A DNA stretch of 64,000 bases from a virus, in IMG/VR virus record IMGVR_UViG_3300025141_013870, positions 32,001 to 96,000 of that record; one strand, 5' to 3'. The notes beneath the pieces were generated by a model. That model made no database searches and was not told where the DNA came from. It saw only the letters and a list, made by a program, of their open reading frames with translations. The position numbers and the translations under genes were made by a program. Position 1 is the stretch's first letter; the number at the start of each line of letters is the position of its first letter. Shown here one piece after another: positions 38,767 through 55,914 of the stretch.

Positions 38767-39207
38767 ATGATGAATTGGCGTCCTCCTAAATCACCGTACA
38801 ATCTTATTCAGGAACATCTTTGGGAAGATCCCTGGAAGATATTTGTCGCGTGTATATTTTGCAATCTAACAAGAAGAGTCGACGCTGAACCGTATATGTG
38901 GAAATTCTTTGAGAGATATCCCACGCCAGACTCTGCATCAGAGGCTGATGTCGATGACATAGCAGATATGATAGGCCCGCTCGGACTCTCTCAGAGACGA
39001 TCTAAGACCCTGGTTAAGATGTCCTATGATTATATCAACGAGGACTGGAGAAGCGATCCTGCAGTTCTCTATGGGATCGGAAAGTATGCATCTGATGCGT
39101 ATCGAATCTTTTGCCTCGGTGAATGGAGAGATGTTCGACCAAAGGATCACGCATTAAATGATTATCATAACTGGTTAAAAAAAGAGAATCATAATACGTT
39201 GTTATAG
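38767..39207 (+). CDS. MBD4-like HhH-GPD DNA glycosylase (T:G / U:G mismatch type)
   Basis: WRPPKSPYNLIQEHLWEDPWKIFVACIFCNLT, LYGIGKYASDAYRIFC and KDHALNDYHNWL closely parallel the MBD4 catalytic domain. Confidence 0.85.
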   Translation: MMNWRPPKSPYNLIQEHLWEDPWKIFVACIFCNLTRRVDAEPYMWKFFERYPTPDSASEADVDDIADMIGPLGLSQRRSKTLVKMSYDYINEDWRSDPAVLYGIGKYASDAYRIFCLGEWRDVRPKDHALNDYHNWLKKENHNTLL

Positions 39208-39234
39208 ATCAGTATTGATAGTATATTTAATATC

Positions 39235-39396
39235 ATGCTGATAACAGAAAGAAGTCTAAGAGCTCTCATTAGAAACGAGCTACGCCTATATTCAAATAAA
39301 ATACTTGAGGCGAGATTTAAGGGCTGGAGTCCAAGGGGAGATATTGGGGATTTGATTGACCAGAATCTTGAAGCTAAAGAAGATGACATAGCATGA
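39235..39396 (+). CDS. Small hypothetical protein (53 aa, not in the ORF track)
   Basis: MLITERSLRALIRNEL...; preceded by ATATTTAAT; its TGA overlaps the next ATG. Confidence 0.55.
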   Translation: MLITERSLRALIRNELRLYSNKILEARFKGWSPRGDIGDLIDQNLEAKEDDIA

Positions 39397-40250
39397 TTCT
39401 TTCAAGAAAAAATCTTAGGATGCTCATACACGATGTCATGCTTAAGGAGTCAAAGTATTTTGGCATGTCTGTGGAAGAGGTTCTTTCATTTTTTGATAAG
39501 TTTAGTCAAAATACGTGGATATTTTTTGATACAGAGACCACTGGTCTTCCACGGGATGTACAAAAGGGACAGATAACAGAGATAGGTGCGGTTGCTGTAA
39601 ATCCTAAAAACTGGAATGACGATGCTGAAATTCTTGGTGAATTCAACGAGAAGATCACGTTAAATCCGGACACACTTGCAACAATTGAAAGACAGAGGCC
39701 TGATACAGAAAGTACACATACTAGTAGCAGGGTGTGGACAGTGGAAAAGGCACTTGAGATGACACGATATCATGAGTGGGATAGAGAATATAAAGATGAG
39801 CAGGATGTTATCAAAGGGTTTATAGAGTTTGTACAGTCATTTTCCAATCCGGTTCTTGTAGCGCAGAACGCATCATTTGACATGAAGTGGATCTTCGCAC
39901 GGTCAGAGACAAAGATGAATAGATACCCTGTTATAGACACAATGAAGATAATGCAGCTATTTTTAATTCCGCTTCTTAAGACTTTGCGTGATAAGCATGG
40001 AGACGTTGAGGCTAGAGAATTTTTACAGCTGATTAGAAAAGGTAGAATGTATTCGTCGTCTCAGGGCGTTGTTTCAGCTGCATATGGAATATCTACGGAT
40101 AACTGGCATAGTGCAATTGGAGATGTTGAGATGCTCATGGATCTCTTTCAGCACGTAGTTGACACCCTTAGAGAGGGAGAAGGTGTGGACATAAGCGGAG
40201 AGCATGGAAAGACAGCTGCGTATGCGATGAAGAGAAAGAGAAGAAGATAA
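39393..40250 (+). CDS. DEDDh 3'-5' exonuclease (Pol III epsilon-like)
   Basis: WIFFDTETTG (ExoI), LVAQNASFD (ExoII), WHSAIGDVE (ExoIII). Confidence 0.85.
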   Translation: MILSRKNLRMLIHDVMLKESKYFGMSVEEVLSFFDKFSQNTWIFFDTETTGLPRDVQKGQITEIGAVAVNPKNWNDDAEILGEFNEKITLNPDTLATIERQRPDTESTHTSSRVWTVEKALEMTRYHEWDREYKDEQDVIKGFIEFVQSFSNPVLVAQNASFDMKWIFARSETKMNRYPVIDTMKIMQLFLIPLLKTLRDKHGDVEAREFLQLIRKGRMYSSSQGVVSAAYGISTDNWHSAIGDVEMLMDLFQHVVDTLREGEGVDISGEHGKTAAYAMKRKRRR

Positions 40251-40251
40251 C

Positions 40252-40908
40252 TTATTCGTGTTTCTTTAGTCTAGCAACTCCATCTACTATCGTCACATAT
40301 GTCTGATGTGTGACCCAGTCTCCAGCATTTATATATGTTTTAATATCTTCGTCTGAATTAATCCACACGAGAGCTTCAGGAATATGCGTATGACCCATGA
40401 TAAATACATCAACATCAGGATTATGTCTTAGTATATGAATCACGCTTCTAAGCTTGTGCTTTTTGATTTGCTTTTCTGTCCACCATGTAGTAAAGTCAAA
40501 ATTAAAAGTAAATTCTAGTATATTTTGAATTACCGAAAGAATTATAACAAATATTTTGTTGTGAAGGACACCCTTATCATATTCGTCACCATGCTCAATT
40601 CTAAAATTTCTACCGTGAGATTCAAAGTCATATCTCTTTACAAACTCTACATTGTGAACATTTTTTCCTACAAGATTTAAAAGGCTCTGATCATGATTGC
40701 CTACAACATATATTATTTTTTTATTGTAATTGACTGCGCTTATAATCTCTAGACACCTTTCAGTGAATATAGGAATTTTAATAAAGTCTATGATATCACC
40801 TGCAAGTATTAATTCATCATAGCTTTCTGACTTTAAAAATGACAGAAGCTGCTCTGATTTGTAGAATTTACTTCCAATGTGTGTATCAGAGACGACAATT
40901 CTTTTCAT
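40252..40908 (-). CDS. Calcineurin-like metallophosphoesterase (LpxH-like)
   Basis: SDTHIG, AGDIID, VGNHD, IEHGD, MGHTH motifs; the only convincing minus-strand gene. Confidence 0.85.
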   Translation of the reverse strand: MKRIVVSDTHIGSKFYKSEQLLSFLKSESYDELILAGDIIDFIKIPIFTERCLEIISAVNYNKKIIYVVGNHDQSLLNLVGKNVHNVEFVKRYDFESHGRNFRIEHGDEYDKGVLHNKIFVIILSVIQNILEFTFNFDFTTWWTEKQIKKHKLRSVIHILRHNPDVDVFIMGHTHIPEALVWINSDEDIKTYINAGDWVTHQTYVTIVDGVARLKKHE

Positions 40909-41039
40909 TGAATAAGCGCCTTTATAATATGATTATAATCAAAATTTTGCCCTTGTTTTTCTATAAAAACAGAGAGATACACTTATAGTTTCAGTGTTTA
41001 TAATAATGAATATCCGAAAGGAATTAACAGGAGAAAAAA

Positions 41040-41285
41040 ATGTATAGAATGTCAGACGAAGTTATTTCACAAATTGCAAAGCTTGTTCAGCTTGCAATTA
41101 TCACTGGAACAGATGTCGTAGATAATCTTAGAATGATAAGAGTTGAACCGTCTGAGGAAGATGGCGCATGTCTTTCACTGACACAAGAGTACAGAGAGAT
41201 TGGTGAAAATCAGATTAATAGTTTGCTGTCTGAGCTTGACAATGTCAATACTTCAGATGAGGAAGTAGATGTCGAAATCGAGTGA
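41040..41285 (+). CDS. Small hypothetical protein
   Basis: AGGAG RBS; 81 aa acidic protein at the head of an operon. Confidence 0.6.
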   Translation: MYRMSDEVISQIAKLVQLAIITGTDVVDNLRMIRVEPSEEDGACLSLTQEYREIGENQINSLLSELDNVNTSDEEVDVEIE

Positions 41286-41652
41286 TAATCTAAAACACAT
41301 GTTTGATCTAAGAGAGTCATTTATGGTATCTCTTAGAAAGAAGTTTTCTACTGAAAATCCTGAATGGCCACTAGATCTTTCTACAAAAGAACATCAACAA
41401 TATTGCAGAGACATAGCACTGAGAGGTGTTGAAGAGATGTTTGAAGCTCTGCAGCATTTAAAAAACTGGAAGCCACATCGGACAACTGAGATAACTGAAT
41501 TTGACAGAGATGAGTTTTTAGAAGAGGTAGTAGATGCTTTTAATTACTTTTTATCTTTGTTAGTTTTGACAGGCTTTTCATCAGAAGATTTTTACAAGAT
41601 GTATGTCAAGAAGGATAAGATTATACATGAAAGACTCAAAGGCGACTATTAG
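41269..41652 (+). CDS. All-alpha dimeric dUTPase/dCTPase-like (MazG superfamily) pyrophosphatase
   Basis: VEEMFEALQHLKNWKPHR and EFLEEVVDAFNYF match the two acidic metal-binding helices. Confidence 0.75.
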   Translation: MSKSSDNLKHMFDLRESFMVSLRKKFSTENPEWPLDLSTKEHQQYCRDIALRGVEEMFEALQHLKNWKPHRTTEITEFDRDEFLEEVVDAFNYFLSLLVLTGFSSEDFYKMYVKKDKIIHERLKGDY

Positions 41653-42580
41653 AGATTTATTTGAATTACAAAAAAGATTTAATGATATTTTCTATGATAT
41701 GGATGATATCGGATCAAGAGAACGAGAAGAGATCACAAAATCTTTAGCGCTAGCATTACACACTGAGGTTAGCTCTCTTATATCTGCAATAAACTTTAAA
41801 GATCACAGGCAGAATAAAAAAGATGCTGATGAATACAAGATCTTGTTTGAAAGTGTAGATATATTTCGATATCTTATTTCTATTCTAAACATCTGGGATA
41901 TCACGCCAGAAAGATTTACAGAGGCATTTCTTGATAAGGATTTGTTTCTTCATGCAAGATACAAGATCAATTCTAGCAAGTGGTCGGGACAGGATGTAAT
42001 CATAGTAGATCTTGATGATGTAGTAATAGAATTTAGGAATGGTTTTCTAGAGTGGCTTAGTGATACATATAAAATATTTGTTGACCCTGATAGCAAAGAA
42101 TACTATACAACTGCTGAATTAAAAAATGCTGGTGTTAATCCTGAAAAGGTATTTTCTAATTTTATTAAGAGTAGAGGATTAAGATCTTTAGAAAAAAATC
42201 AAGATATGATTGATGTAATTAACAAGCTGAGTGCAGACGGATATTGGATTCAGCTTTTAACAGCTAGACCGCAAGATAATCTTGTGTGCCATTACGATAC
42301 GTTTAGATGGATAGAAAGCTCTAATTTAAAATATGATAGATTAGATTTCAGCAATGAAAAATATAGATGGTGTACCCAGTCTGATTATTTTGATAGCAAC
42401 AGTATCGTGTGTGCTATAGATGACTCAGCTAAGCATAGTGCTGAATATGCAAAACACGGAATTCCAGTTTTTCTTCCTTCAAAAAGTTACAACACTGAAG
42501 TACACAATATGACCAATGTAACAGTGTTTGATGATCCGAGAGACGTGTGGGAAAAAGTTAAATCTCTTAAGAATAAGTAG
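41627..42580 (+). CDS. Fusion of a MazG/dUTPase-like domain and a HAD 5'-nucleotidase-like domain
   Basis: N-terminal HTEVSSL...KDHR...FESVDIFRY; C-terminal IIVDLDDVV, LLTARP, AIDDS (HAD motifs I, II, IV). Confidence 0.7.
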   Translation: MKDSKATIRDLFELQKRFNDIFYDMDDIGSREREEITKSLALALHTEVSSLISAINFKDHRQNKKDADEYKILFESVDIFRYLISILNIWDITPERFTEAFLDKDLFLHARYKINSSKWSGQDVIIVDLDDVVIEFRNGFLEWLSDTYKIFVDPDSKEYYTTAELKNAGVNPEKVFSNFIKSRGLRSLEKNQDMIDVINKLSADGYWIQLLTARPQDNLVCHYDTFRWIESSNLKYDRLDFSNEKYRWCTQSDYFDSNSIVCAIDDSAKHSAEYAKHGIPVFLPSKSYNTEVHNMTNVTVFDDPRDVWEKVKSLKNK

Positions 42581-42600
42581 AATAGGATGGCTTACCTCAA

Positions 42601-43662
42601 ATGATAGATAGAAAATCACTAAGAGATATGATACATGAGATGTCTAAATCATCACTATTTGAACAGGATGATACAAATGAAAGAATATCAGCAAGTGATT
42701 ATGAAAAGATATATTCAGATTCACAGCAATACTTTAGAATCACGCTTAACAAGTATGTGGAGAGAATTTCTTCAGAACAATATAAGAAAAAAATAAAAAA
42801 TCAACTAAGGAAAGATGGATTTAAAGATAGCGAAATAGATGAATTTTTAGATGATAGTGACTTTCTAGACAGGGTTTCATCTGCAATAGAAAATGCTTCT
42901 ATTGTTGTTGTCACAAACTCATCTTTTAATTATGACAGACTTGACAGGTGGTACGGGGCCGTACTTTCAGAAAGAAGCGAAAAATCATGGGCGCCAGATT
43001 TTAATAAGCTAAAGGATTCAATTAAAGATTCTGGAAGGATAGCGCAACTACTTTTAAAGGTAAAAACATCTATAGGTGATTTTGTAAATCAGACTAGATC
43101 ATTTGATAGTCCGATTATTCTTATAAGTTTTGAAAATTTTAAAGATGGAAAAGGAGATCTGAAAGGAACAGTTGAACATGAGGTAGACCATATTCAAGGC
43201 TTAATGGTTTCGAAAGCTAGAAAGATTATTAAAAAATCTCCTGATGAGCCAGAGACATTTTCATCTGCAGTGATATCTCTCGTAAGAGACCCGAGGATTG
43301 GAGGATGGGACGAGTGGGTGATTGATAGATTCCAAGGAGATAAAAGAGAAGCGTTTAATTTTTTAAAAGATTCATTTCAAGGAAATTTAGATCCTTCAAA
43401 TCCTAGAGGAGTAGAGGAGTCCAGAAATAGATTTCGCGAGCTAAATGATAAGCTCGGTGAATCTGAAGCTGCATTAAAAAAATTTCTTAGCAATGAAATT
43501 TCTAACCCTACGCCGCACATCCAGCTTGTCTCTAAGTACGGTAGAAGAATTGCTCAGATAGTTCCGTTAATAAATTATGACTTGGGTGTGGATGAACTTG
43601 CGTCTATGATTTATGGAATAGCTTCTGCAGAAATGCCAGAAAAAAAATCTAAAATAGTTTGA
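42601..43662 (+). CDS. Hypothetical protein with HExxH motif and shared N-terminal motif
   Basis: MIDRKSLRDMIHE N-terminus; TVEHEVDH zincin-like motif. Confidence 0.55.
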   Translation: MIDRKSLRDMIHEMSKSSLFEQDDTNERISASDYEKIYSDSQQYFRITLNKYVERISSEQYKKKIKNQLRKDGFKDSEIDEFLDDSDFLDRVSSAIENASIVVVTNSSFNYDRLDRWYGAVLSERSEKSWAPDFNKLKDSIKDSGRIAQLLLKVKTSIGDFVNQTRSFDSPIILISFENFKDGKGDLKGTVEHEVDHIQGLMVSKARKIIKKSPDEPETFSSAVISLVRDPRIGGWDEWVIDRFQGDKREAFNFLKDSFQGNLDPSNPRGVEESRNRFRELNDKLGESEAALKKFLSNEISNPTPHIQLVSKYGRRIAQIVPLINYDLGVDELASMIYGIASAEMPEKKSKIV

Positions 43663-43670
43663 TATTTTAA

Positions 43671-43698
43671 TGTAATTCAGTCGGTTATGAGGTATATT
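43671..43698 (+). promoter_or_regulatory. Sigma70-like promoter
   Basis: TGTAAT-N16-TATATT; the same architecture occurs at 38733, 47016 and 62871. Confidence 0.5.
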
Positions 43699-43723
43699 TG
43701 TTATGCATATAAAAGGAGGCTTT

Positions 43724-43981: not shown

Positions 43982-43999
43982 AATATAAAGGATAAAGGC

Positions 44000-44980
44000 A
44001 TGCCGCAAAATTTTGACTTAGATCCTATTGTACTACCAATGGATTTAAAGTTTGATCAAGATCCTACTACAGAGTTTTATAATAATCTACAAGCACTAAA
44101 GGTAGAGCTGATTGATTATCCAACCAGAACTCAGGCTTTAAAGGTTGCATGGCAATATGTCAAGGCTACGTGGGCTGATCATCATGATGAAACAACCACT
44201 GCTGGAATTGATCCAGCAGAGCTATCAAAAAATCTTGAAGATGTTATGTGCTTTAGAGCTCTTCCCACTCCAATGGAGTGTCTTGGGTTCACGTTTAAAT
44301 TGAGCGGGCTTTCATTTCAAGAGGTCACGCATATTATTCGTCACAGAGCAGGATCTTTTGCTGCTCAATGCACGGGAGATAGAGATCTTAGAAGTGATCC
44401 GGCTGTAATTCCCGAGGCTGTTCAAAATTCTCCTGAGTTTCTTGAGAGATGGAAGAATCTTGTCTTAGAGTCTAAACAGTTATATGCAGACATGACTGAT
44501 AGTAAAGATGTTTCAATGATGGATGCCAGGATGGTTCTTCCAAAGTGTATGACTTCTTTTTATCTTATGAGAATGAATTTAAAAGATTTGCTTGGATTTA
44601 TTCGACAGAGGCAGGATAAGCAGATTCAGCCAGCTGCTGACAACATTCTCGCCGCATATATGGCTAGAGAACTAATTAATGTGCTACCAGAAGCATCTGT
44701 AGCTATTAGATTCGACTCACCTGACATGCACTATATCAAGACATTTAGAGTTAAAGAAGCAGGAAGATGGACAAGTAAGGGGACAAATCTATACTGGCCT
44801 GAGCCAAAGAATGATACATTTGAGTATCATCCAGACGACACCATATATCAGGCTCGAAGAGAATCAATTAACGGAACAAAGAAGCCAGACGGTCCTACAG
44901 TTTTTGAAAGATTATGGGACGATGTTATGAATGATATTAGTTTCATGAAGACAGAATATAATAAAAACAAATTAGAATAA
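44000..44980 (+). CDS. Divergent ThyX-like flavin-dependent enzyme
   Basis: TPME..FTF, RHRAGSFAAQC, DARMVLP and NLKDLLGFIRQR align with ThyX motifs, with substitutions. Confidence 0.75.
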   Translation: MPQNFDLDPIVLPMDLKFDQDPTTEFYNNLQALKVELIDYPTRTQALKVAWQYVKATWADHHDETTTAGIDPAELSKNLEDVMCFRALPTPMECLGFTFKLSGLSFQEVTHIIRHRAGSFAAQCTGDRDLRSDPAVIPEAVQNSPEFLERWKNLVLESKQLYADMTDSKDVSMMDARMVLPKCMTSFYLMRMNLKDLLGFIRQRQDKQIQPAADNILAAYMARELINVLPEASVAIRFDSPDMHYIKTFRVKEAGRWTSKGTNLYWPEPKNDTFEYHPDDTIYQARRESINGTKKPDGPTVFERLWDDVMNDISFMKTEYNKNKLE

Positions 44981-45050
44981 TAAATTTTAAAACAATCATA
45001 AAAATCTTATCAAGTTTTGATTATAATAATAGGCCAGATTTGGAGGAAAT

Positions 45051-45491
45051 ATGAAGGCATATATAGCAAGTTCGTGGTTTAATCCTGTAGCTAATCAGGA
45101 GGTAAACGATATTATTAGCTCTCTAGCAGAAAATAATTTTGAATTTTTTTCACCTAGAGATTTTTTTGTGTGTCCACCAGGCGCTGACCTAGAGACTCAA
45201 AAATCAACATATGAAGGAAATCTTGAACATCTTCACAATTGTGATTTCATGATATGTAATACGCACGGAAAAGACATGGGATCAATTTTTGAGGCAGGAT
45301 ACTTTAAGGCACTAGATAAGCCTATTGTTTACTTTTGTGCAGGGTTGCCAGAGGGAGCATCATTTAATCTTATGCTAGCTCAAAGCGGTGTGACTGTGTG
45401 CACGTCAAAAGATCAACTAAGTGACTATCTATCTAGGTGTAGTGATCAAGAGCAGCTTCTTTTTGAGCCATATTACGGCAGTATTGAATGA
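45051..45491 (+). CDS. Nucleoside 2-deoxyribosyltransferase / nucleotide N-hydrolase family protein
   Basis: AYIASSWF, FFSPR and KDMGSIFEAGY (D-x-G-x3-E-x-G-Y catalytic motif). Confidence 0.8.
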   Translation: MKAYIASSWFNPVANQEVNDIISSLAENNFEFFSPRDFFVCPPGADLETQKSTYEGNLEHLHNCDFMICNTHGKDMGSIFEAGYFKALDKPIVYFCAGLPEGASFNLMLAQSGVTVCTSKDQLSDYLSRCSDQEQLLFEPYYGSIE

Positions 45492-45961
45492 TATTTGCTT
45501 TTTTGCAAATTATCTCTACATGGATTTATGGCCACGTACTAGAGTACTCAATTCATAGATGGCTTTTGCATAAGCTTGGAACTAAAAAAGGTAGAATTTT
45601 TTCATTTCACTTCTATGGTCATCATAGCTTTGCAAGACTAAATGAATTTTTTGATAAATCATATTCTGGTTTTCCACTTAGGTGGGATCCCGCTGGAAAA
45701 GAATTGCTATCACTTTTATTCTTGATGGCAATTCATATTCCTGTTATGATTTATTTACCATGGTCTGCACCCGTTATAGTATTTTCACTAGCACAATATT
45801 ATTATGTTCACAGGAAATCTCATAACAACCCACATTGGGCAAGATCTAGTCTTATATGGCATTATGAACATCACATGGGATTAAATCAAAATAAAAACTA
45901 TGGAGTCAGAACAGATATTATAGATAGGATTGTTGGAACTAGAGTAAGGTACTATAGATAA
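45488..45961 (+). CDS. Fatty acid hydroxylase / sterol desaturase family membrane protein
   Basis: Four His boxes: EYSIHRWLLH, HFYGHH, YVHRKSH, WHYEHH, then NYGV. Confidence 0.8.
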   Translation: MIFAFLQIISTWIYGHVLEYSIHRWLLHKLGTKKGRIFSFHFYGHHSFARLNEFFDKSYSGFPLRWDPAGKELLSLLFLMAIHIPVMIYLPWSAPVIVFSLAQYYYVHRKSHNNPHWARSSLIWHYEHHMGLNQNKNYGVRTDIIDRIVGTRVRYYR

Positions 45962-45970
45962 TAGCTAGGT

Positions 45971-47043: not shown

Positions 47044-47066
47044 AAAATAACAAACTAAGGTTTTAA

Positions 47067-50000
47067 ATGTCAGAGAAAAAGAATTTTATACTTCCTAAGA
47101 GATTTGTCGGCTTACACGCTCACAGCGGAACTGGATCTCCGTATGACGGTCTGGGATATCCAGATCAGCATATAGATTTTGTTCTATCTAATGATATGGA
47201 TGCATGGGCATTAACTGATCACGGAAACGGAAATGGTCTTGCACATGCTCATGCGTATGCCAAGAAGTTAAAAAACAAGGGACAAAAATATAAACAGCTG
47301 TATGGTGTAGAATTTTATTTTGTTCCTTCTCTTTTTGACTGGAGAATACAATATGAGAATCATAGAGAGGAAGTTCGTCAAGCTAGAACAGAAAAAAAGT
47401 CAAAAGAGAGAACAGATATCGATTCTGAAGACGAGGTGTCAGGCGGACTTATTATAGAAAACGAAGAAGAGACAAAAGGTGATTTTGATAAAAATGTGTG
47501 GAAAAGACGATATCATCTCGTTGTCTTAGCTAAAAACAGCCAGGGTCTAGAGAATTTATTTACTCTTGTAAAAAGATCATACACAGATGGTTTTTATAGA
47601 TTTCCAAGAATTGATTTTGATCTTCTTAATAAGTATGGTGATGGCCTTATAGTAAGCACAGCATGCATTGGCGGATACCCATCATCGTTAATAGCAAGAG
47701 GTGAATCACATGGAAAGTCAAGCAAAGATATCATTCTTGATTTAGAAAACATGTCTGATAGATTTATTGACGCAGTAGGAAGAGAAAATTTTAATCTCGA
47801 GATTCAATTCAATTCATTGTCTATGCAACATAAGACAAACAAATATCTTATAAAGCTTCATGAAAAAACAGGAATTCCTCTAGTTGCAACTGCTGATAGT
47901 CACTACTATAGCAGAAACATGTGGGAAGCAAGAGAGCTTTACAGAAAGCTTGGCAGAATGGGAGCTAGAGGAGATTCAATGCCTACACTTCCTTCTTTTG
48001 AAGATCTTAAATGTGAGCTTTATCCTAAGAATGCTAACCAGATGTGGGATGAATTTAACGTTCACCTTCCTGAATATGAGTTTTATAAAGGAAAAGAACA
48101 GATTATTTCCGATGCAATTGAGAGAACATATGACATTGCATGGGAACAATGTGAAGAAATATGGTTTGACGAAGATGCAAAATTACCAAATTTTGACTTG
48201 CCTGACAATCCTGCTATTACTCAGCTAGTATTTAGAGTCAAAAAAGCACTTATTGATGAAGGTCTTCACGAAAAGAAAGAGTATGTAGAAAGAGCAACGA
48301 TGGAGCTGAGCGACATCAAGCACCTTGGTTTTGAAAATTATTTTCTCACAATGACAAAGGTTTTTGATCTAGCTTCAAAGAAAACTATTATTGGACCAGG
48401 AAGAGGTTCTGGAGCAGGATCTCTTGTAAATTATCTCTTAGGAATCACTACGACAGATCCCATCAAGTATGGTCTTCTATGGGAGAGGTTTTTGCATAGA
48501 GCAAAAGCAGGATGGCCAGATATTGATACAGACGCTGGTGATAGAGATGTCTTGATAAATGCGTCTAGAGAATTATTTGGAGATGAATCAGTTGTACCTG
48601 TTTCAAATTTTAATACTTTAAAATTAAAATCTCTAATAAAAGATGTTTCAAAATTTTATGGCATTGATTTTGGTGAGGTCAATGCAATGACAAATAAGCT
48701 TGAAAAAGAAGTCATGCATAAGGCAATGGGAGACCATGAAGAAAAATCGACTTATGTTCTAACTCATGAAGACTGTTTGAAATATTCTGATAACTATGTT
48801 GACTTCATGTCAAAATATCCAAAGGTATCCGAACAGGTTCAAAAGCTTTTTATGGAATCAAGATCTATTGGAAGACATGCAGGCGGAGTCCTGATATGCC
48901 CAAATCTAGAAAAATATATGCCACTTATTAAGGTAAGAGGAGAGCTCCAGACGCCATGGTCAGAAGGCATGAACTTTAGGCACTTAGAGCCTAATGGCTT
49001 TCTTAAGTTTGATTTTCTAGGTCTAACAACTTTAAAAATGGTTGAAGATTGTATTCGACTTGTCTTGAGAAAACAGGGAAACACATCACCTTCATTTGAT
49101 GACATTAGTAAATTTTTTGATGATAATATAAACTGTAGATATAATGACTTAACTGATGATAAAGTTTGGGAACATGTTTATCACAAGGGAAGATTTGTAC
49201 AGGTGTTTCAATTTACGCAGCAGGGCGCAAGAAATTTTTGCAGAAGAGCAAAGCCAAGAACCATAGAAGAGCTAGCAACAATTACGGCAATATATAGGCC
49301 GGGCCCGCTGGCAGCAAATGTTGATAAGAAATATGTCAAGACGAAAAGGGAGGCAGAAAATGGAAGCCCTATTCGCTATGATCATCCAGTGATTGAAGAG
49401 ATACTGAGTGAAACATATGGTTTTATATCATTCCAAGAGCAATTCATGCTCTTAGCACAGAGGCTATCAGGATTTGACAAGGGGGAATCAGACAAGATGA
49501 GAAAGACACTTGTCAAGAAGTCTCTTGATTCAAATGCAGCAAAGGTGCAGGAAAGAATTGACTTAAGAAAGAAGTTTGTTGATGGAGCAGTTGAGCTATC
49601 TGGAATGAAAAGAGATATAGCAGAGACTCTTTACGAGACAATTGAGTATTTTTCTGGATATGGATTTAATAAATCACATGCGATTTCGTATGCGATCGAT
49701 TCGTATTATTCTGCGTGGCTGCATACTCATTATGAAAAAGAATGGCTAGCCACATGTCTTCAGACTCAAAACGGAACAAATAAGTTTGGAAAGGTTATCA
49801 ATGAGATCAAGTCTTTGGGATACAAAATACTTCCTCCTGACATTAATATTTCTTCTGATGTCTGGGTGTATAGTGATGAAAGAAACGGTTTTGTTCCGCC
49901 TTTAACTGCGATCAAAGGTGTTGGATCAGCTGCAGTTGAAGAGATCATTGATCGCAGACCGTTTTCTAATATAGATGAAATGCTTTTTACAGAGGACGGA

Positions 50001-50633
50001 AAATGGAAGCCTTCTAAGATGAATAAAACATGCTTTGATTCATTGTGCAAGGTAGAAGCTTTTGGATCACTTGATGAGATGAAAAATAGAGCAATTAAGA
50101 ATCATAGACAGCTATATGAAACAATTGTTGGAAATTATGATCTTTTAAAAAAAGGTCGATACGGAATAACAAAAACTGCGTATAAAAAGACTATTAAAGA
50201 AAGAGGTGATATTCCAAGATTTATAGATGAAAAAACAATAGAGAATTATGATCTTCAAGATTGGACTCGTGAATCTAAAATATTATTTAGTGTTGACTTG
50301 ATGGCAGGAGCAGATGAAACTCTTATCTTTCCTCCAAAGATAATGGAGAAGATTGAAAATGCCAATGTGAGACCTGCCTCTAGCCTGATGGGAAAGGAGA
50401 AAGATATAGTCTGGTTCTGTATTCAAACACTAGAGGAGAGAACAACGAAAAATGGAAAAATTTTCTACAGGATGAAAGTTATAGATAATAACTTCGAAAG
50501 TACGTGGATTCGTGTTTGGGGTGCATTTAGAGATATTCCAGATCTTTACACCATGTGGATCGCTGAGGTTGCATCTACAGATTCATGGGGCTGTTCTACA
50601 TCGTCATATAAAATGAAAAGGATTGATGTATAG
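47067..50633 (+). CDS. dnaE: DNA polymerase III alpha subunit (family C) with PHP domain
   Basis: LHAHS, ALTDHG, GVEFY, STACIGG, VATADSHY, GPGRGSGAGSL, WPDIDTD, GRHAGGV, KFDFLGL, FSGYGFNKSHAISY. Confidence 0.96.
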   Translation: MSEKKNFILPKRFVGLHAHSGTGSPYDGLGYPDQHIDFVLSNDMDAWALTDHGNGNGLAHAHAYAKKLKNKGQKYKQLYGVEFYFVPSLFDWRIQYENHREEVRQARTEKKSKERTDIDSEDEVSGGLIIENEEETKGDFDKNVWKRRYHLVVLAKNSQGLENLFTLVKRSYTDGFYRFPRIDFDLLNKYGDGLIVSTACIGGYPSSLIARGESHGKSSKDIILDLENMSDRFIDAVGRENFNLEIQFNSLSMQHKTNKYLIKLHEKTGIPLVATADSHYYSRNMWEARELYRKLGRMGARGDSMPTLPSFEDLKCELYPKNANQMWDEFNVHLPEYEFYKGKEQIISDAIERTYDIAWEQCEEIWFDEDAKLPNFDLPDNPAITQLVFRVKKALIDEGLHEKKEYVERATMELSDIKHLGFENYFLTMTKVFDLASKKTIIGPGRGSGAGSLVNYLLGITTTDPIKYGLLWERFLHRAKAGWPDIDTDAGDRDVLINASRELFGDESVVPVSNFNTLKLKSLIKDVSKFYGIDFGEVNAMTNKLEKEVMHKAMGDHEEKSTYVLTHEDCLKYSDNYVDFMSKYPKVSEQVQKLFMESRSIGRHAGGVLICPNLEKYMPLIKVRGELQTPWSEGMNFRHLEPNGFLKFDFLGLTTLKMVEDCIRLVLRKQGNTSPSFDDISKFFDDNINCRYNDLTDDKVWEHVYHKGRFVQVFQFTQQGARNFCRRAKPRTIEELATITAIYRPGPLAANVDKKYVKTKREAENGSPIRYDHPVIEEILSETYGFISFQEQFMLLAQRLSGFDKGESDKMRKTLVKKSLDSNAAKVQERIDLRKKFVDGAVELSGMKRDIAETLYETIEYFSGYGFNKSHAISYAIDSYYSAWLHTHYEKEWLATCLQTQNGTNKFGKVINEIKSLGYKILPPDINISSDVWVYSDERNGFVPPLTAIKGVGSAAVEEIIDRRPFSNIDEMLFTEDGKWKPSKMNKTCFDSLCKVEAFGSLDEMKNRAIKNHRQLYETIVGNYDLLKKGRYGITKTAYKKTIKERGDIPRFIDEKTIENYDLQDWTRESKILFSVDLMAGADETLIFPPKIMEKIENANVRPASSLMGKEKDIVWFCIQTLEERTTKNGKIFYRMKVIDNNFESTWIRVWGAFRDIPDLYTMWIAEVASTDSWGCSTSSYKMKRIDV

Positions 50634-51538
50634 TGTTATTGTTTCCTACAAATACTCTTTTTATAGAAGGTCCTGACTGTTCTGGAAAGACAACTTTAAT
50701 AAAGAACATTCACAATCTATCAAATTATTTGTGGCATATTCACGATAGATCTCAAATATCAAGAAGCATATTTAATGAGCTTTATAATAGAGAAAATGAT
50801 AACATAGAGTCAGATTTACATCTTGAAATTTCAAATCTCAATAATAGATTCGTCTTGTTACTACCTGATATAAGGGTTGTTAGTGAAAGATTTATTAAAA
50901 GAGGAGATGACTTTCATAAAGACATGAAATCAATAGAAAGTGTTTATAATATCTTTGAGAGAAAATTTAAATACCTAAGAGATTTTCCAAATACTATGAT
51001 ATATTCAAAAAGTCATCCAGATGAAATAGCATCAATTGTGCTCGCCAGGCTTCATCTTGTTGAACGATGCATGATTAGAGAGGTATCAGATCAGGTATTA
51101 AGATTTGTAGAGTGTAATAATAATGAGGCTTATCCCGTTAAGTTTACATTATATGATGATGGTGAATTTGAAGAGGCTAGTGAATCAGTACTTGACTATA
51201 AGCCAGAAAGCGATTATTACAATTCCATATTTAATAAACTGCACACAAAAATAAGTGATGAGCTAGCGGGAAATAATGAATATAGCAGGGTTGAAGATAC
51301 AACCTCTAGAAGATTTATTTATACAGATAATACATGTATATCGCTTATTCATGTCGCAATTAGAGACAGAGTTATGGATTTTCATACAGTGATTAGATCA
51401 TCTGATGTCGAAAACATTTTTCCTCACGATCTAAGATTTTTGTATTATCTAGCTGCCACTTGTTATAATAGATTTTCAGATGAATGTGATAAGGTTAGAA
51501 TGAGATTTAATTTAAACTCTGCTCACATAATATGTTAA
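50633..51538 (+). CDS. Fusion of a dNMP kinase and a minimal thymidylate-synthase-fold domain (dCMP-type Asp)
   Basis: IEGPDCSGKTT P-loop and HDRS; C-terminal SRRFI...TC...IRSSDV...FPHD...NSAHI aligns with ThyA SRRII/PCH/QRSCDV/LPFN/GDTHLY. Confidence 0.75.
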   Translation: MLLFPTNTLFIEGPDCSGKTTLIKNIHNLSNYLWHIHDRSQISRSIFNELYNRENDNIESDLHLEISNLNNRFVLLLPDIRVVSERFIKRGDDFHKDMKSIESVYNIFERKFKYLRDFPNTMIYSKSHPDEIASIVLARLHLVERCMIREVSDQVLRFVECNNNEAYPVKFTLYDDGEFEEASESVLDYKPESDYYNSIFNKLHTKISDELAGNNEYSRVEDTTSRRFIYTDNTCISLIHVAIRDRVMDFHTVIRSSDVENIFPHDLRFLYYLAATCYNRFSDECDKVRMRFNLNSAHIIC

Positions 51539-51564
51539 AATTTTGAAGTTAAAACGGAGAGACT

Positions 51565-52572
51565 ATGAAAAGAGCACTAGTAACAGGAGGATGCGGATTT
51601 ATCGGATCCAATCTTTCAAAGAGACTTGTAAAAGACGGATGGGTTGTTGACATTGTAGATGATCTATCAAGTGGACATTTAGAGCTAGTTCAAGAATTAA
51701 AGATTAGAGTTATACCGGTAGACTTGTTATCACAATTTTATGATAATTTTGATAGAGATGAAGGAACAGTTCACATTTTGCAAGGTGATTTTTCACATGA
51801 CAATGTGTTAAAAAATATCATTGATCAAAAATATGATTATGTTTTTCATCAGGCTGCGATACCAAGGGTCCTTTTTTCTGTTGAAAACCCATCTTTAACA
51901 ACAGAAGTGAATATAGCAGAAACGGTTAGGTTGTTTGAGGCATGCATAGGAAGTGTCAAGAGAGTCATATTTGCATCATCATCATCTGTTTACGGAGGCG
52001 CGGATGTTCTTCCCACACGTGAAAGTATGTCAAAAAATCCTAAGTCACCATATGCGTGGCAAAAGAGCGCAGTTGAAGATATAGCGGAATTATTTTGTCA
52101 ATTATACGATATTGATATCGTATGCTTAAGATACTTTAACGTCTTTGGACCAGGCCAGTATGGCGACTCTCCGTACTCCACAGCAGTTTCTGCCTGGTGT
52201 CACGCACTTAAAAATGGATCGCCTATGAGAAGTGACGGTGATGGATCACAAACAAGAGATATGTGCTATATTGACAATGTTATCCACGCTAACGTACTAG
52301 CTGCTGAATCTGATCGAACGAGATTTGATGGATTTAATGGAAGATGCTATAATATTTCATGCGGAGATAGAACATCTAATTCTGAAATATTAGAATACTT
52401 TACAAAGAGATATTCTCACGCAGCTGTTGTCAATGCTCCCTGGAGACCTGGTGATGTAATGCACACCCAGGCAGATATATCAAGAGCAAGCGAAGAGATT
52501 GGATATGAACCTCTTGTGAGATTCTGGGACGGACTAGAAAAGACTATTGAATGGTGGGGTATAGATTCTTGA
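51565..52572 (+). CDS. NAD-dependent NDP-sugar epimerase/dehydratase (extended SDR)
   Basis: LVTGGCGFIGS, VFHQAA, FASSSSVYG, SPYAWQK (YxxxK), LRYFNVFGP, GDGSQTRD. Confidence 0.93.
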   Translation: MKRALVTGGCGFIGSNLSKRLVKDGWVVDIVDDLSSGHLELVQELKIRVIPVDLLSQFYDNFDRDEGTVHILQGDFSHDNVLKNIIDQKYDYVFHQAAIPRVLFSVENPSLTTEVNIAETVRLFEACIGSVKRVIFASSSSVYGGADVLPTRESMSKNPKSPYAWQKSAVEDIAELFCQLYDIDIVCLRYFNVFGPGQYGDSPYSTAVSAWCHALKNGSPMRSDGDGSQTRDMCYIDNVIHANVLAAESDRTRFDGFNGRCYNISCGDRTSNSEILEYFTKRYSHAAVVNAPWRPGDVMHTQADISRASEEIGYEPLVRFWDGLEKTIEWWGIDS

Positions 52573-53003
52573 TGCTTTCTAAAAAACACGTAAAATCTTC
52601 CTGGGTTGTTAGAAAAAAAACAAACAGTGTTATAAACAAACCTTGGGGAACTGAAACAATATGGTCAGGATTTTTTGGAATTCATGGAAAAACATGTTTT
52701 ATTAAAGCCGGTGCCAGATCAAGTTTTAAATATTTTCCAATAAAATCTGAAGTTTTATTTTTAAGATCTGGAAAGGCAGAGGTGACGTTTGGGGCTGAGG
52801 AGACACTATTGGATCCCATAGGCTATCCGTTAAAGAGTGAGATACTTTGCGAGGGAGACGTGCTAATGGTTCAATCTGGCTGCCCGTATAGGGTTAAAGC
52901 CATAACTGATTGTGAGATAATTGAGATAGGAAATAATTCTACAGATAAGCCAGTTAGAATAGAGGATGACTATGGAAGAGCTACAGCTAAAAAGAAATCC
53001 TGA
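52572..53003 (+). CDS. Cupin-fold protein (sugar isomerase-like)
   Basis: KPWGTE start and VRIEDDYGR end, as in the cupin domain of type II mannose-6-phosphate isomerases; metal-binding His residues not evident. Confidence 0.65.
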   Translation: MLSKKHVKSSWVVRKKTNSVINKPWGTETIWSGFFGIHGKTCFIKAGARSSFKYFPIKSEVLFLRSGKAEVTFGAEETLLDPIGYPLKSEILCEGDVLMVQSGCPYRVKAITDCEIIEIGNNSTDKPVRIEDDYGRATAKKKS

Positions 53004-53553
53004 GTTTATAATTTTTACAGGGCCGATGTTTAGCTCTAAAACAACTAGACTTCTTGCTACAATAGATCGATTCAGATATCAAAATAGAAATGTCGTCGCA
53101 TTCAAGCCTTCTCTTGATGAACGATACTCGCAATCTAAAATTTGTACACACAACGGAGGAGAAATAGAAGCACATGTAGTTAAGTCAGGTGACGATATAA
53201 TTAAGTTAGTGAAAAACTACGATAAAAATATAGATGTCATCGCAGTTGATGAAGCGTTTATGATAGAAGGAGTAGCTGTGTCGCTACTCGATCTTTTTAG
53301 ATCTGGAAAAACAATAGTCATATCTTCTTTACAGCTTTCTGCAACTGGCAATGTATTTGAAGAGATTAGAGATATGATGCCGTGGGCAACAAAAATAGAA
53401 GTTTGCCCAGCAGTATGTACTATTACTGGTCTTGACGCATATTACACTCATAGAAAATTTAACAATATGGAAGAGATAACAGTCGGAGGTTCTGATTTAT
53501 ATGAACCTAGATGCTGGTTTTACCATAGTTTTATGAACCAGTCAGACATTTAG
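52966..53553 (+). CDS. tdk: Thymidine kinase (type II)
   Basis: GPMFSSKTT, FKPSLDERY, VIAVDEAF, VGGSDLYEPRC. Confidence 0.92.
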   Translation: MTMEELQLKRNPEFIIFTGPMFSSKTTRLLATIDRFRYQNRNVVAFKPSLDERYSQSKICTHNGGEIEAHVVKSGDDIIKLVKNYDKNIDVIAVDEAFMIEGVAVSLLDLFRSGKTIVISSLQLSATGNVFEEIRDMMPWATKIEVCPAVCTITGLDAYYTHRKFNNMEEITVGGSDLYEPRCWFYHSFMNQSDI

Positions 53554-53559
53554 GAGATT

Positions 53560-54642
53560 ATGATGCTAGAGCCAACAAGTGTCGATTACGTTATTTATCA
53601 CGCTAACTGTTCTGATGGATTTGGTGCAGCATATGCTGCATGGAAATGTCTAGGCAATAAGGCAACTTATCTCGCTGCAAAGCATGGTTCAACGCCTCCA
53701 GACATCACAGATAAGAATGTAGCTATTCTTGATTTTTCTTATGATAACACGACTATAAAAGGAATGATCGAAGAGGCAAATGATCTAATAGTTATAGATC
53801 ATCATAAATCTGCGGTGGTAGAGCTTCATGATATTTCTAATACTCGCTTCGATATGACAAAGAGCGGTGCAATGTTATCTTGGGAGTATTTTCACCCTGG
53901 AAAAGAACCCCCGAAGTTCATACGATATATTCAGGATCGCGATCTCTGGAAGTGGGAATTAGATTATTCCAAGGAATTTAGTGCAGCATTTGATATGGTT
54001 CCGTTTGAATTTGAAGAATTTGTGAAATTTGAAGATGATTCAGTTTTTGATGACGCTGTAAAGCGTGGCTCATTTATTCTTGCGTATAGCAAAACAGTTG
54101 TAAAGAAAGTTTGTGAAAAGGCACGGCCCAGAAAGTATGGTGGTCTTGATGTACTAGTCGTAAATTCATCTCACTGGATGTCTGAGATTGGTGCAAGATT
54201 ATCCGCAGAGTGTGACTTTGCTGTAATATGGTATTATGATCATGAGGAAAGAAATATTCGAGTAAGCCTCAGATCATTTCATGATAATGTAGATGTATCA
54301 GAAATAGCTAAAAAATTTGGCGGCGGCGGCCACAAGAAGGCAGCTGGCTTTACACTGTCTGGTGAGACGATTGTAGATGATCTATTTGATAGAATCGAAG
54401 AACCTTTAGTTGATACTACTCCTGCCAGAGAGGAGCTTAAGAAAATTCGAGAAGTTCTTGAGGAAAAAGGCGATATTGACAAAGAGGAGGCGGTTGATCA
54501 AATGGAAGCTCTTTTAGATGGGCTTGAGGTTAAGGAAACAGATGAATCAGAAAAATTGCAAGAAGATAAGGGAGACGATACAGGAGTCAGCGAAGAAGCT
54601 AGAGGGAAAATTACCCTCATCCAGTCGTCATCCCAAGGGTAG
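53560..54642 (+). CDS. DHH/DHHA1 phosphoesterase
   Basis: YHANCSDG, ILDF, IDHH, QDRDLW, SLRS, FGGGGHKKAAGF; acidic C-terminal tail. Confidence 0.88.
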   Translation: MMLEPTSVDYVIYHANCSDGFGAAYAAWKCLGNKATYLAAKHGSTPPDITDKNVAILDFSYDNTTIKGMIEEANDLIVIDHHKSAVVELHDISNTRFDMTKSGAMLSWEYFHPGKEPPKFIRYIQDRDLWKWELDYSKEFSAAFDMVPFEFEEFVKFEDDSVFDDAVKRGSFILAYSKTVVKKVCEKARPRKYGGLDVLVVNSSHWMSEIGARLSAECDFAVIWYYDHEERNIRVSLRSFHDNVDVSEIAKKFGGGGHKKAAGFTLSGETIVDDLFDRIEEPLVDTTPAREELKKIREVLEEKGDIDKEEAVDQMEALLDGLEVKETDESEKLQEDKGDDTGVSEEARGKITLIQSSSQG

Positions 54643-54769
54643 AAACCCATACGCACACCTACCAAAAGTTATAAAGTCATTTTTTGGAAAGTCATATAAA
54701 GATTTATCAGATGATAAAATAGATGAAGTGATGTATATAATTGAATATTGCACGGAGAATCCATTTTAA
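54542..54769 (+). CDS. Small hypothetical protein
   Basis: HPKGRNPYAH motif; overlaps the end of the DHH gene by about 100 nt. Confidence 0.55.
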   Translation: MNQKNCKKIRETIQESAKKLEGKLPSSSRHPKGRNPYAHLPKVIKSFFGKSYKDLSDDKIDEVMYIIEYCTENPF

Positions 54770-54770
54770 T

Positions 54771-55520
54771 ATGTCATATCTTGGTTATATAAAATGCTTA
54801 TCAAAGCTAATGTCACATATTAATGATCCTGTTATATTAGAGATAGGCGTTGACTATGGGCAATCTACTCTTCCTCTTGTTCATAACCTTATCTCATCTT
54901 GCGATCGTTTTTTATATACAGGTGTCGATATAAAGTTACGACAAGAGGTAATTGAACAAGCTGTTCAGATGAACGATGTTTTACTTTTAGGAAAGCCGGG
55001 CGTGCCTAAAGATTCTGCAAATGTTGTATTTTATACAGCTAACAGTCTTGAATTATTACCAAAGCTTAAAAGTCACGGTGCAAAATATGATTTAATTCTT
55101 ATCGATGGAGATCACAATTACTTCACTGTTAAAAATGAACTTGATCACATAAAGGATATCGTGTATCCAAGCACAATAATTATGTGTGATGACTATAACG
55201 GTAGATGCGCTGAGTCAGACATGTTTTATTCTGATAGAAAAGAATATGAATCTATTGAAATCGCCACACCAAGAAAGCATACTGAGAAACAAGGAGTGCG
55301 CACGGCTGTCTCTGACTTTCTAAGTGAAAACCCTACGTGGGCAATTCTTGATCATGGTCTGGATCCTTGTTTTTTATTCCAGAAAGACTACGTTGATTTT
55401 AATATTTTTTCTCCTGAAGGCTCAACATCTCTTAGCGATTGTATTTTAGAGTTTAATCTCAAGTCACCTTCAGCATTGGCAAGGTTCAAGGAGAGCACAA
55501 TTGCGTCCATCATGGAATAA
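54771..55520 (+). CDS. Class I SAM-dependent methyltransferase
   Basis: ILEIGVDYGQST (motif I), YDLILIDGDHNY, IMCDDY. Confidence 0.8.
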   Translation: MSYLGYIKCLSKLMSHINDPVILEIGVDYGQSTLPLVHNLISSCDRFLYTGVDIKLRQEVIEQAVQMNDVLLLGKPGVPKDSANVVFYTANSLELLPKLKSHGAKYDLILIDGDHNYFTVKNELDHIKDIVYPSTIIMCDDYNGRCAESDMFYSDRKEYESIEIATPRKHTEKQGVRTAVSDFLSENPTWAILDHGLDPCFLFQKDYVDFNIFSPEGSTSLSDCILEFNLKSPSALARFKESTIASIME

Positions 55521-55914
55521 AGTATGGATGGAGTTTGCGTATATAATATCCAAAAGATCATATGATCTACGACATCAGGTGGGTGCTGTGATTGTGACTG
55601 ATGATAACACTCAGGTTCTTGCAGTGGGATATAATGGAAACTATGCAGGAGGGCCAAATGAATCTGAATCACTTGAGCCAGGTCAGTCTGGAATGATACA
55701 CGCAGAGATAAATGCTCTTTTAAAATGTGATTATAATTGCCCAAAAAGAAAAATAATGTATATCACTTTGTCTCCTTGCAGGATGTGTGCAAAGGCAATA
55801 ATCAATGCGGGAATAAGTGCTGTAATTTATGATCAAGAATATAGAGATTCATCAGGAATAGACTTGCTTCATAATGCAGGCATCTCTGTTGTTTCATTCA
55901 AAAATATTAGATAA
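55501..55914 (+). CDS. dCMP deaminase
   Basis: VGAVIV, GYNG, IHAEINAL, TLSPCRMC zinc-binding motifs. Confidence 0.92.
   Translation: MRPSWNKVWMEFAYIISKRSYDLRHQVGAVIVTDDNTQVLAVGYNGNYAGGPNESESLEPGQSGMIHAEINALLKCDYNCPKRKIMYITLSPCRMCAKAIINAGISAVIYDQEYRDSSGIDLLHNAGISVVSFKNIR

Follow-up and report, generated by a model that had tools for sequence, protein, structure and literature searches.

A kinase–thymidylate synthase fusion resembling dCMP-acting enzymes in a conserved, replication-linked nucleotide block of an uncultured marine jumbo phage

Among the described systems closest to the locus examined here, phage T4 encodes a dCTPase (gp56), a dCMP hydroxymethylase (gp42), a deoxynucleoside monophosphate kinase (gp1) and alpha- and beta-glucosyltransferases. 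Clusters with 5-hydroxy-dCMP synthases, which belong to the thymidylate synthase (TS) superfamily, have been described in RB69, DLP3, HY126 (enzyme AfhB; 9iqu/9iqc) and RL38J1 (PMC13326640). In the glycosyl-5-hydroxycytosine phages DLP3, RB69 and RL38J1, a "nucleotide kinase" like YorR and thymidylate kinase (TMPK) adjoins the TS homologue; Asp at the position of ThyA Asn177 confers a preference for dCMP, an acidic residue at the L143 position accompanies non-methyl products, and D169N has been proposed as a signature of 5-hydroxy-dCMP synthases (PMC13326640). The mildiomycin pathway includes a CMP hydroxymethylase (MilA) and MilB, an hmCMP hydrolase of the nucleoside 2-deoxyribosyltransferase (NDT) family. 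Here we describe a 17-kb segment (38,767 to 55,914) of a 64,000-nucleotide window, positions 32001-96000 of IMG/VR record IMGVR_UViG_3300025141_013870, which comes from an uncultured marine giant (jumbo) phage of a widespread lineage; coordinates below are in window numbering. At its centre is a gene (50633-51538, + strand) for a 301-residue protein that joins a YorR/TMPK-like kinase (residues 1-146) to a minimal TS fold of 155 aa (residues 147-301; mini-TS). A first-pass annotation had proposed that the segment holds a candidate complete system for a modified, possibly glycosylated cytosine. That interpretation is partly supported: the fusion is the only gene in the block that points to a modified base, and by its sequence and modelled structure the phage probably uses it to build an altered cytosine into its DNA.

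A Pfam scan of the fusion protein matches no domain, and a search with PF00303 (thymidylate synthase) finds nothing in this protein or anywhere else in the 118-kb record. Its architecture is visible in an AlphaFold2 (AF2) model built from a 34-sequence alignment (pLDDT 94). Residues 4-146 form a P-loop nucleoside monophosphate/deoxynucleoside kinase fold that is closest to the B. subtilis prophage protein YorR (VIA-align Z 14.3), with deoxyadenosine kinase and thymidylate kinases (TMPK Z 10.7-12) next in rank. For the TS half, Foldseek ranks the dCMP hydroxylase AfhB (9iqu, phage HY126; E 7.5e-7) ahead of T4 dCMP hydroxymethylase and MilA, and VIA-align gives Z scores of 12.2 to MilA and 11.2 to both AfhB and ThyA. 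The kinase-TS fusion named in the first-pass annotation is borne out by these matches and by the profile alignment described below. Searches of the PDB with sequences (the fusion, the ThyX-like protein and a 353-aa open reading frame [ORF], the latter two discussed below) gave no useful match, and the profile of the whole fusion reaches YorR and other kinases only, not TS.

In the TS half, E192, R226, C235, R244, R255, S256, D266 and H298 do not vary among the 34 fused proteins compared (identity as low as 29%) or the 17 stand-alone ones (as low as ~22%), and R227 and Y196 are nearly invariant. D266 occupies the position of ThyA Asn177, and the phosphate-binding R226-R227 and R255-S256, the nucleophilic C235 and the C-terminal H298 make up the rest of the TS catalytic set. 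When the family is aligned by hhalign with three PF00303-positive dCMP-type TS homologues from other phages (probability 82%, E 1e-5, 66 columns), C235 falls on the catalytic Cys, RSSD on RSND/RSID, D266 on the Asp at the Asn177 position and H298 on the His of NLH. An Asp stands three residues ahead of the Cys (D, N or E in the family). The D169N signature is not fixed: the window protein has Asp258 there, and relatives have D, N or E. These comparisons support, at the level of sequence, the view that the TS half carries the catalytic set of a dCMP-acting TS homologue.

The gene neighbourhood was compared in two sets of 80 IMG/VR loci, one anchored on the fusion and the other on the ThyX-like gene, and all window proteins were mapped onto both; genes downstream of the fusion were counted in the 63 fusion-anchored loci having at least 8 kb of sequence. 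The fusion has 395 homologues of nearly constant length (~301 aa), and kinase and TS are joined in all of them. Its GTG start overlaps by one base the stop codon of dnaE (47067-50633, + strand), which encodes a DnaE-type replicative polymerase recognised by tblastn to phage DnaE-like pol III alpha subunits, and the fusion is predicted to be translationally coupled to dnaE. DnaE lies upstream in 80/80 fusion-anchored loci (66/66 assessable). Conversely, of the 25 loci whose sequence covers the last part of DnaE plus a further 1.1 kb, 24 have the fusion next; its absence from the remaining one is an artefact of range, as the stretch stops 200 nt short of a known fusion gene. In this lineage the fusion is the sole TS-type protein. 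No canonical ThyA was found in the 118-kb record or in five long relatives, whereas ThyX is present, so it is not the TS-like domain that serves as thymidylate synthase. Among cultured phages, tblastn with the fusion gives only a partial match to the kinase, in a Pelagibacter phage, and neither a kinase-TS fusion nor a 155-aa TS core with a YorR-like kinase coupled to DnaE turned up in our literature search.

The mini-TS also occurs on its own. An exhaustive search with the TS-half profile returned ~400 clusters, mostly 300-aa fusions; some of the matches, 164-200 aa long, comprise nothing but the mini-TS and retain its invariant residues. A single alignment of all stand-alone proteins was too diverse for a locus scan, and two sub-alignments were used instead, by which stand-alone mini-TS genes were located at four IMG/VR loci (L176-L179). 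In L179 (IMGVR_UViG_3300033148_006757, 6051-12832) the two halves of the fusion are separate genes: a thymidylate-kinase-like ORF of 155 aa, whose P-loop EGPDxxGK(S/T)T is that of the fusion, overlaps the start of a 215-aa mini-TS by 13 nt. This stand-alone relative matches PF00303 weakly (E 0.0023). The pair is flanked by a dCMP-type TS and ThyX on one side and by a family-B polymerase on the other, with NrdD nearby.

The remaining three loci share one cluster, which in L176 (IMGVR_UViG_3300012933_000323, 8708-16304), as in L177 and L178, runs in the order kinase, dCMP-type TS (223 aa; PF00303 E 8e-22; RSND...D, NLHVY), mini-TS, small HAD phosphatase and bifunctional nucleotidyltransferase (NTP-transferase)/APH enzyme; further along are two proteins of 400-470 aa without an assigned family, then a C5-cytosine-methylase-like gene. 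The HAD match is weak (E 7.4e-4; 20.1 bits, under the Pfam cut-off of 27.6 bits), and the APH half is barely over its cut-off (23.8 against 23.2 bits). Read with those weak matches in mind, the HAD protein and the nucleotidyltransferase-kinase have the domain make-up of AfhF/AfhE from the arabinosyl-5-hydroxycytosine pathway. By its predicted gene content, the cluster looks like an undescribed cytosine hypermodification cluster in a lineage unrelated to the window phage. The kinase and mini-TS are paired in three arrangements (fused, overlapping or one gene apart); two of these adjoin cytosine-type TS genes, one of them within a cluster having sugar-activation genes.

Around the fusion, gene order recurs across the 160 related IMG/VR loci, so the clustering is not due to chance. 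Two blocks are conserved: one comprises an 81-aa ORF, MazG, MazG-HAD, ThyX-like and NDT genes, while the other consists of DnaE and the fusion, usually followed by a short-chain dehydrogenase/reductase (SDR), thymidine kinase (TK), a DHH phosphoesterase and dCMP deaminase. Co-occurrence, which had been put forward as a way of judging whether these genes form one system, is informative only up to a point: the two blocks do recur, several of the listed genes are sporadic, and shared descent explains the recurrence as well as shared function does, because the sample is a single lineage without any variation and without a fusion-less relative.

The first of these blocks forms a near-universal cassette in the ThyX-anchored loci. 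It is headed by an 81-aa acidic ORF without a family match (41040-41285, + strand), which lies directly upstream of MazG in most of the ThyX-anchored loci (n=80); small acidic phage proteins are often enzyme inhibitors. The next gene (41269-41652, + strand) encodes a 127-aa all-alpha nucleoside triphosphate (NTP) pyrophosphatase of the small MazG/dimeric dUTPase type (Pfam dUTPase_2; PHROG NTP pyrophosphohydrolase), in which the metal-binding ExxE...EExxD motif is intact (E56, E59, E85, E86 and D89 invariant). It is followed by a MazG-HAD fusion (41603-42580, + strand; the true start is probably a few codons past 41603) with dUTPase_2 at residues 16-118 and an NT5C-type 5'(3')-deoxyribonucleotidase at residues 131-254. 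The HAD motifs DxDxV, T and DD are intact in the NT5C domain, and the gene is present in 16 of the 17 long related records that carry the kinase-TS gene. The MazG-like domain is partly degenerate, with TEVSS instead of ExxE; this suggests, on sequence, a catalytic/degenerate pair with the small MazG that might heterodimerise. The two pyrophosphatase-like domains and the HAD nucleotidase reported earlier are therefore real, as dUTPase_2/MazG twice and NT5C motifs. A role of the pyrophosphatase-like domains in removing dCTP has no clear support: among annotated proteins, the small MazG is closest to actinophage dimeric dUTPases, not to dCTPases.

The ThyX-like protein (326 aa; 44000-44980, + strand) is divergent, as had been noted: it matches Pfam Thy1 above the cut-off of that model (E 1.4e-19, 71 bits), yet it scores 44 bits against an NCBIfam thyX equivalog cut-off of 87.9. 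It has a C-terminal extension of ~95 aa, and its relatives are 57-80% identical. RHR, R177 and R204 are kept (invariant; the last two equivalent to the uracil-contacting Tm R147 and R174), Cys is found at the Ser88 position, and His53, Arg74 and Gln75 are not kept. Directly 3' of it in nearly all 80 ThyX-anchored loci, and ~6 kb upstream of the fusion, is the NDT gene (45051-45491, + strand; PF05014 E 1.5e-15, 57.8 bits). The family assignment made in the first-pass annotation holds; the label "hydrolase" is unsupported, because the motifs, including the catalytic-Glu motif DxGSxFEAGY present in the translation, are of the classical transferase type.

Downstream of the fusion, an extended-SDR NDP-sugar 4-epimerase/dehydratase (51565-52572, + strand; Pfam Epimerase E 1e-46) is found in 51 of the 63 assessable loci, where a median of 52 nt separates it from the fusion. 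Its best NCBIfam matches, TviC and GalE, both score far under their equivalog cut-offs, and the protein is best described as generic. A small cupin (52551-53003, + strand; PHROG 7851) is encoded in 24/63 loci, always following the SDR; 13 of 17 members of the cupin family weakly match PF01050 (type-II phosphomannose-isomerase C-terminal barrel) and Cupin_2, while its profile finds only chance-level and generic cupin matches in the PDB. Three further genes are widely kept: a TK1-type thymidine kinase (52966-53553, + strand; PF00265 E 1e-33) in 57/63 loci, an NrnA/RecJ-like DHH/DHHA1 phosphoesterase (53560-54642, + strand; Pfam DHHA1 and DHH) in 46/63, and dCMP deaminase (55501-55914, + strand; PF00383 E 9e-22) in 61/63. 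Between SDR and TK, 15 fusion-anchored loci carry a gene of the GMP-reductase/IMPDH family (L006, 5105-6127, and 14 others), and other relatives have sulfotransferase-like or phosphoribosyltransferase genes in the same block.

A cultured phage offers an outside comparison. Geobacillus phage GR1 (OK896991.1, 19752-38699) has a ThyX-like gene whose product belongs to the subfamily of the window protein (44.6% identical across 99% of its length), and within 10 kb of it are NDT, a DHH phosphoesterase, a PHP/DnaE polymerase and a dUTPase. Also nearby are an HD protein, a 459-aa glycosyltransferase, a nitroreductase-type flavin reductase, a NUDIX protein and guanylate kinase. The kinase-TS fusion was not found in GR1 by tblastn against cultured phages. 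With ThyX, NDT, DHH and DnaE grouped in GR1 and no fusion found there, these four genes constitute a module of their own. The ThyX-like region of GR1 is a possible base-modification locus in a cultured thermophile phage; our literature search found no description of this phage.

We consider it about an even chance that the 17 kb is a conserved replication-linked nucleotide block in which a dTTP-supply layer, a fusion making C5-modified dCMP and a number of passenger genes lie together. In the first layer, the dUTPase-like MazG-type proteins, HAD nucleotidase, ThyX-like protein, NDT, TK, dCMP deaminase and DHH protein would funnel host deoxynucleotides to dTTP, roles assigned by analogy from the established activities of their families. 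TK, dCMP deaminase, ThyX and dUTPase are most simply read as dTTP supply for a genome of ~36% G+C, and the HAD nucleotidase, NDT and DHH protein would recycle host deoxynucleotides. In the second layer, the modelled fold, the unchanging residues and the genomic context are observations, from which chemistry and incorporation are predicted: Cys235 of the mini-TS would attack C6 of dCMP while Asp266 would read the N3/N4 edge of the cytosine, as does Asp179 of T4 dCMP hydroxymethylase. The mini-TS would then install a substituent at C5 of dCMP, after which the fused YorR-like kinase would phosphorylate the modified dCMP toward the triphosphate and DnaE would incorporate it. The SAM methyltransferase, fatty-acid hydroxylase, HhH-GPD protein, DnaJ and 353-aa ORF would be optional passengers outside any common pathway. 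A substituted cytosine is the best single reading of the fusion alone; the complete system spanning 17 kb that had been proposed is unsupported.

Several observations weigh against this reading. The mini-TS is ~100 residues short of a normal TS, and most of the folate- or flavin-contacting part is gone. In the L176 and L179 contexts it accompanies a larger dCMP-type TS, and for this reason it may perform a second step, or only bind the nucleotide or hand it to the kinase. On the supply side, the MazG profile is equally weak in the PDB to dimeric dUTPase (E 0.04) and to DCTPP1 (E 0.5-1), and the housekeeping role of the ThyX-like protein is an assumption, given a score below the cut-off, the loss of His53 and the change of Ser88 to Cys. 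Some of these points would suit a block that is housekeeping throughout, boosting dTTP and dNTP supply; the TS half would then bind nucleotide for a dCMP/dTMP kinase, or regulate it, without modifying anything, and the DNA would be canonical. TK, dCMP deaminase, ThyX, dUTPase-like MazG, NDT and DHH all have ordinary salvage roles, GR1 has the same set minus the fusion, the truncated mini-TS has no demonstrable cofactor site, and glycosyltransferase, U32 and radical-SAM genes were not found in the 118-kb record. A binding module, however, needs no invariant Cys, RR, RS, His and cytosine-type Asp across hundreds of clusters; the mini-TS family occurs elsewhere in hypermodification-like clusters (L176-L178), and ThyX is already there for dTMP synthesis. 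We regard the housekeeping explanation as unlikely, though by no means negligible. The modified base could instead lie on the thymine side, if the ThyX-like protein made a non-methyl C5 derivative of dUMP and MazG and MazG-HAD excluded dTTP and dTMP, as in hydroxymethyluracil phages. The divergence of the ThyX-like protein would fit, and it shares one cassette with an NTP pyrophosphatase and a deoxyribonucleotidase, a pair of activities that is induced by thymine-excluding phages (phi-e, PBS2); the GR1 copy, moreover, adjoins the glycosyltransferase, HD protein and flavin reductase. Yet RHR and the uracil-contacting arginines are invariant, the conserved TK and dCMP deaminase fit making dTTP rather than avoiding it, and our literature search gave no ThyX homologue with other chemistry on dUMP. 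This is the least probable of the explanations weighed here.

The pathway of the first-pass annotation, in which MazG acts as a dCTPase, the SDR, cupin and methyltransferase prepare a sugar, and a glycosyltransferase encoded elsewhere completes a substituted, glycosylated cytosine, turns on the sugar. The statement that no glycosyltransferase is visible in the window is correct and extends further: searches with PF00534 and PF00535 are empty over the whole 118-kb record (37% of the genome), as are those for radical-SAM and peptidase-U32 genes, which the first-pass annotation had suggested looking for in the rest of the genome. This absence is a weak negative, as two thirds of the genome is missing, and it leaves the word "complete" without foundation in the record at hand. 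GT-B enzymes and SDR epimerases are also common in the making of cell-surface sugars. Four of 17 long relatives carry an adjacent pair of GT-B genes (Glycos_transf_1, ~400 aa each) some 100 kb away from the fusion (G005:C1:6720-9100 [L091]; orthologues in G001, G002 and G015). The pair is 56-66% identical among distant relatives, better conserved than the kinase-TS fusion; it is, however, unlinked to the fusion, and two relatives whose records are 87% and 70% complete do not have it. In DLP3 and RB69, the DNA arabinosyltransferases share this broad GT-B type (PMC13326640). The position of the SDR and cupin immediately after the fusion is suggestive of a sugar role, and the cupin weakly resembles sugar-phosphate isomerase barrels, yet 12 of 63 loci are without the SDR; an NDP-sugar for decorating the base at a later stage may come from the SDR, alone or together with the cupin, and DNA glycosylation in this phage is a possibility. 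With the methyltransferase and hydroxylase sporadic and the MazG relatives annotated as dUTPases, we find the full pathway very doubtful. Only a little less so is a wider proposal, which we rate as quite improbable: that the whole marine jumbo lineage replaces cytosine with an undescribed C5-modified cytosine, with the mini-TS, lacking its folate half, channelling product to the fused kinase, MazG-HAD clearing dCTP and dCMP, and the SDR/cupin and distant GT-B pair adding a sugar. Were it true, the enzyme would be the smallest known of the thymidylate synthase type.

Every enzyme named in the first-pass annotation is present where it was placed (by Pfam, PHROG, tblastn and, for the fusion, the AF2 model). 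The list was incomplete, omitting a DEDD exonuclease, a metallophosphoesterase, a fatty-acid-hydroxylase-like ORF, DnaJ and the DHH/DHHA1 protein, and the idea that all of its members form one system is not supported, given the distribution of several genes and the GR1 module without the fusion. The class-I S-adenosylmethionine (SAM) methyltransferase (Methyltransf_24; 54741-55520, + strand; PF13578 E 1e-12) is sporadic, in 2/63 loci, as is the 157-aa fatty-acid-hydroxylase-like ORF (45488-45961, + strand; PF04116 33.8 bits), in 2/66 fusion-anchored loci. The 353-aa ORF (42601-43662, + strand), which has no Pfam, PHROG or PDB match, is specific to this phage (0/80 related loci). An HhH-GPD base-excision glycosylase-like protein of 151 aa (38752-39207, + strand; PF00730 27.9 bits against a cut-off of 26.2) is an optional neighbour outside the core, found in 20/80 ThyX-anchored and 4/66 fusion-anchored loci. 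Within range, a DEDD (RNase_T-type) 3'-5' exonuclease (39393-40250, + strand; PF00929 E 6e-9) occurs in 3/80 fusion-anchored loci, and a calcineurin-like metallophosphoesterase on the opposite strand (40252-40908, - strand; PF00149 E 4e-13) in 11/80 loci. The DnaJ co-chaperone (45971-47020, + strand; Pfam DnaJ, DnaJ_CXXCXGXG and DnaJ_C), found in 13/66 fusion-anchored loci, is unrelated to nucleotide metabolism.

The record itself is 118,248 bp in length with a CheckV completeness of 37%, from which a genome of ~300 kb is estimated. It encodes a tail sheath, a UvsX-like recombinase, a DnaB helicase and the large subunit of ribonucleotide reductase (RNR; 24007-26466). Megablast of 12 kb of the window against cultured phages gave zero matches and, with tblastn, indicates that a close cultured relative is absent. 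Homologues of the record's genes come largely from marine metagenomes, Tara among them, and the lineage is represented by no fewer than 129 IMG/VR loci and, at 50% identity, by ~400 protein clusters. What had been called an accessory region is a general collection of host-like genes: besides DnaJ, the record carries genes for a superoxide dismutase-like protein and pterin-4a-carbinolamine dehydratase, and record positions 96001-118248 encode GroEL, DnaK, a sigma-70 factor, peptide deformylase, asparagine synthase and a small cytidylyltransferase. The superoxide dismutase-like protein (236 aa; 56218-56928) has only the C-terminal Fe/Mn superoxide-dismutase domain and is kept in 54/63 fusion-anchored loci; for the dehydratase (61220-61618), an aromatic amino-acid hydroxylase partner is not visible.

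Two downstream proteins were considered as hidden transferases and dropped. In the 632-aa protein (59325-61223), only the first 110-180 residues are common to relatives of 375-1087 aa, and there is no PDB or protein-atlas match; conservation limited to the N-terminus together with variable length is typical of modular structural or host-recognition proteins. The other, of 218 aa, is of low complexity, with four invariant columns, and the atlas gives only unnamed viral clusters. Palindrome counts over the 118-kb record show no strong depletion (observed/expected [O/E] 0.87 for GATC and 0.64 for CGCG; mean 0.96 for C/G-containing 4-mers against 1.02 for AT-only 4-mers) and decide nothing, because protected and unrestricted genomes fit equally well.

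If the fusion does make modified dCMP, very abundant giant phages of the ocean would carry a non-canonical cytosine. This would affect sequencing recovery, escape from restriction and CRISPR, and marine nucleotide cycling, and a 155-aa TS core with its kinase would be a compact new enzyme for modified nucleotides. For annotation, the label "complete system" should not be propagated, as the block is mostly ordinary dTTP supply and several of the genes listed under that label are passengers.

Set beside known systems, the window shares with T4 a TS-superfamily enzyme with Asp at the Asn177 position and a dedicated kinase; all-alpha NTP pyrophosphatases are nearby, and dCMP deaminase and TK coexist, as in T4. 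In contrast to T4, the TS domain is only ~155 aa long and is fused to a YorR/TMPK-like rather than a gp1-like kinase, the MazG relatives are annotated as dUTPases, no DNA glycosyltransferase was found in the 118-kb record, and the polymerase is DnaE, not family B. The 5-hydroxy-dCMP synthase clusters are closer in two respects: AfhB is the best Foldseek match of the fusion, and the kinase beside the TS homologue in RB69, DLP3 and RL38J1 is of the same type as the fusion's kinase half. The acidic or polar residue three before the Cys (D/N/E) also recalls the L143D/E change of the 5-hydroxy-dCMP synthases. The fusion differs from them in that D169N is not fixed and its TS half is ~60 residues shorter than AfhB; AfhE/AfhF-type sugar-activation genes and arabinosyltransferases are absent from the 118-kb record. 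The likeness to mildiomycin biosynthesis lies in MilA, the top VIA-align match of the TS half, and in the NDT-family gene conserved upstream of the fusion. Unlike MilB, however, the window NDT has nucleoside-transferase-type motifs and belongs to the ThyX cassette, and the antibiotic pathway genes are absent. With phage dTTP-supply modules the window has in common a ThyX-like protein, dUTPase-like MazG, dCMP deaminase, TK and the RNR large subunit; it departs from them in its divergent ThyX with a C-terminal extension and in the duplicated pyrophosphatase, one copy of which is fused to HAD. In its overall logic, a dedicated kinase paired with a dCMP-acting enzyme of the TS superfamily, the proposed pathway follows T4, RB69 and DLP3; what is new, within the reach of our literature search, is that the TS core is only 155 aa long, is joined to a YorR-like kinase and is coupled to the DnaE polymerase.

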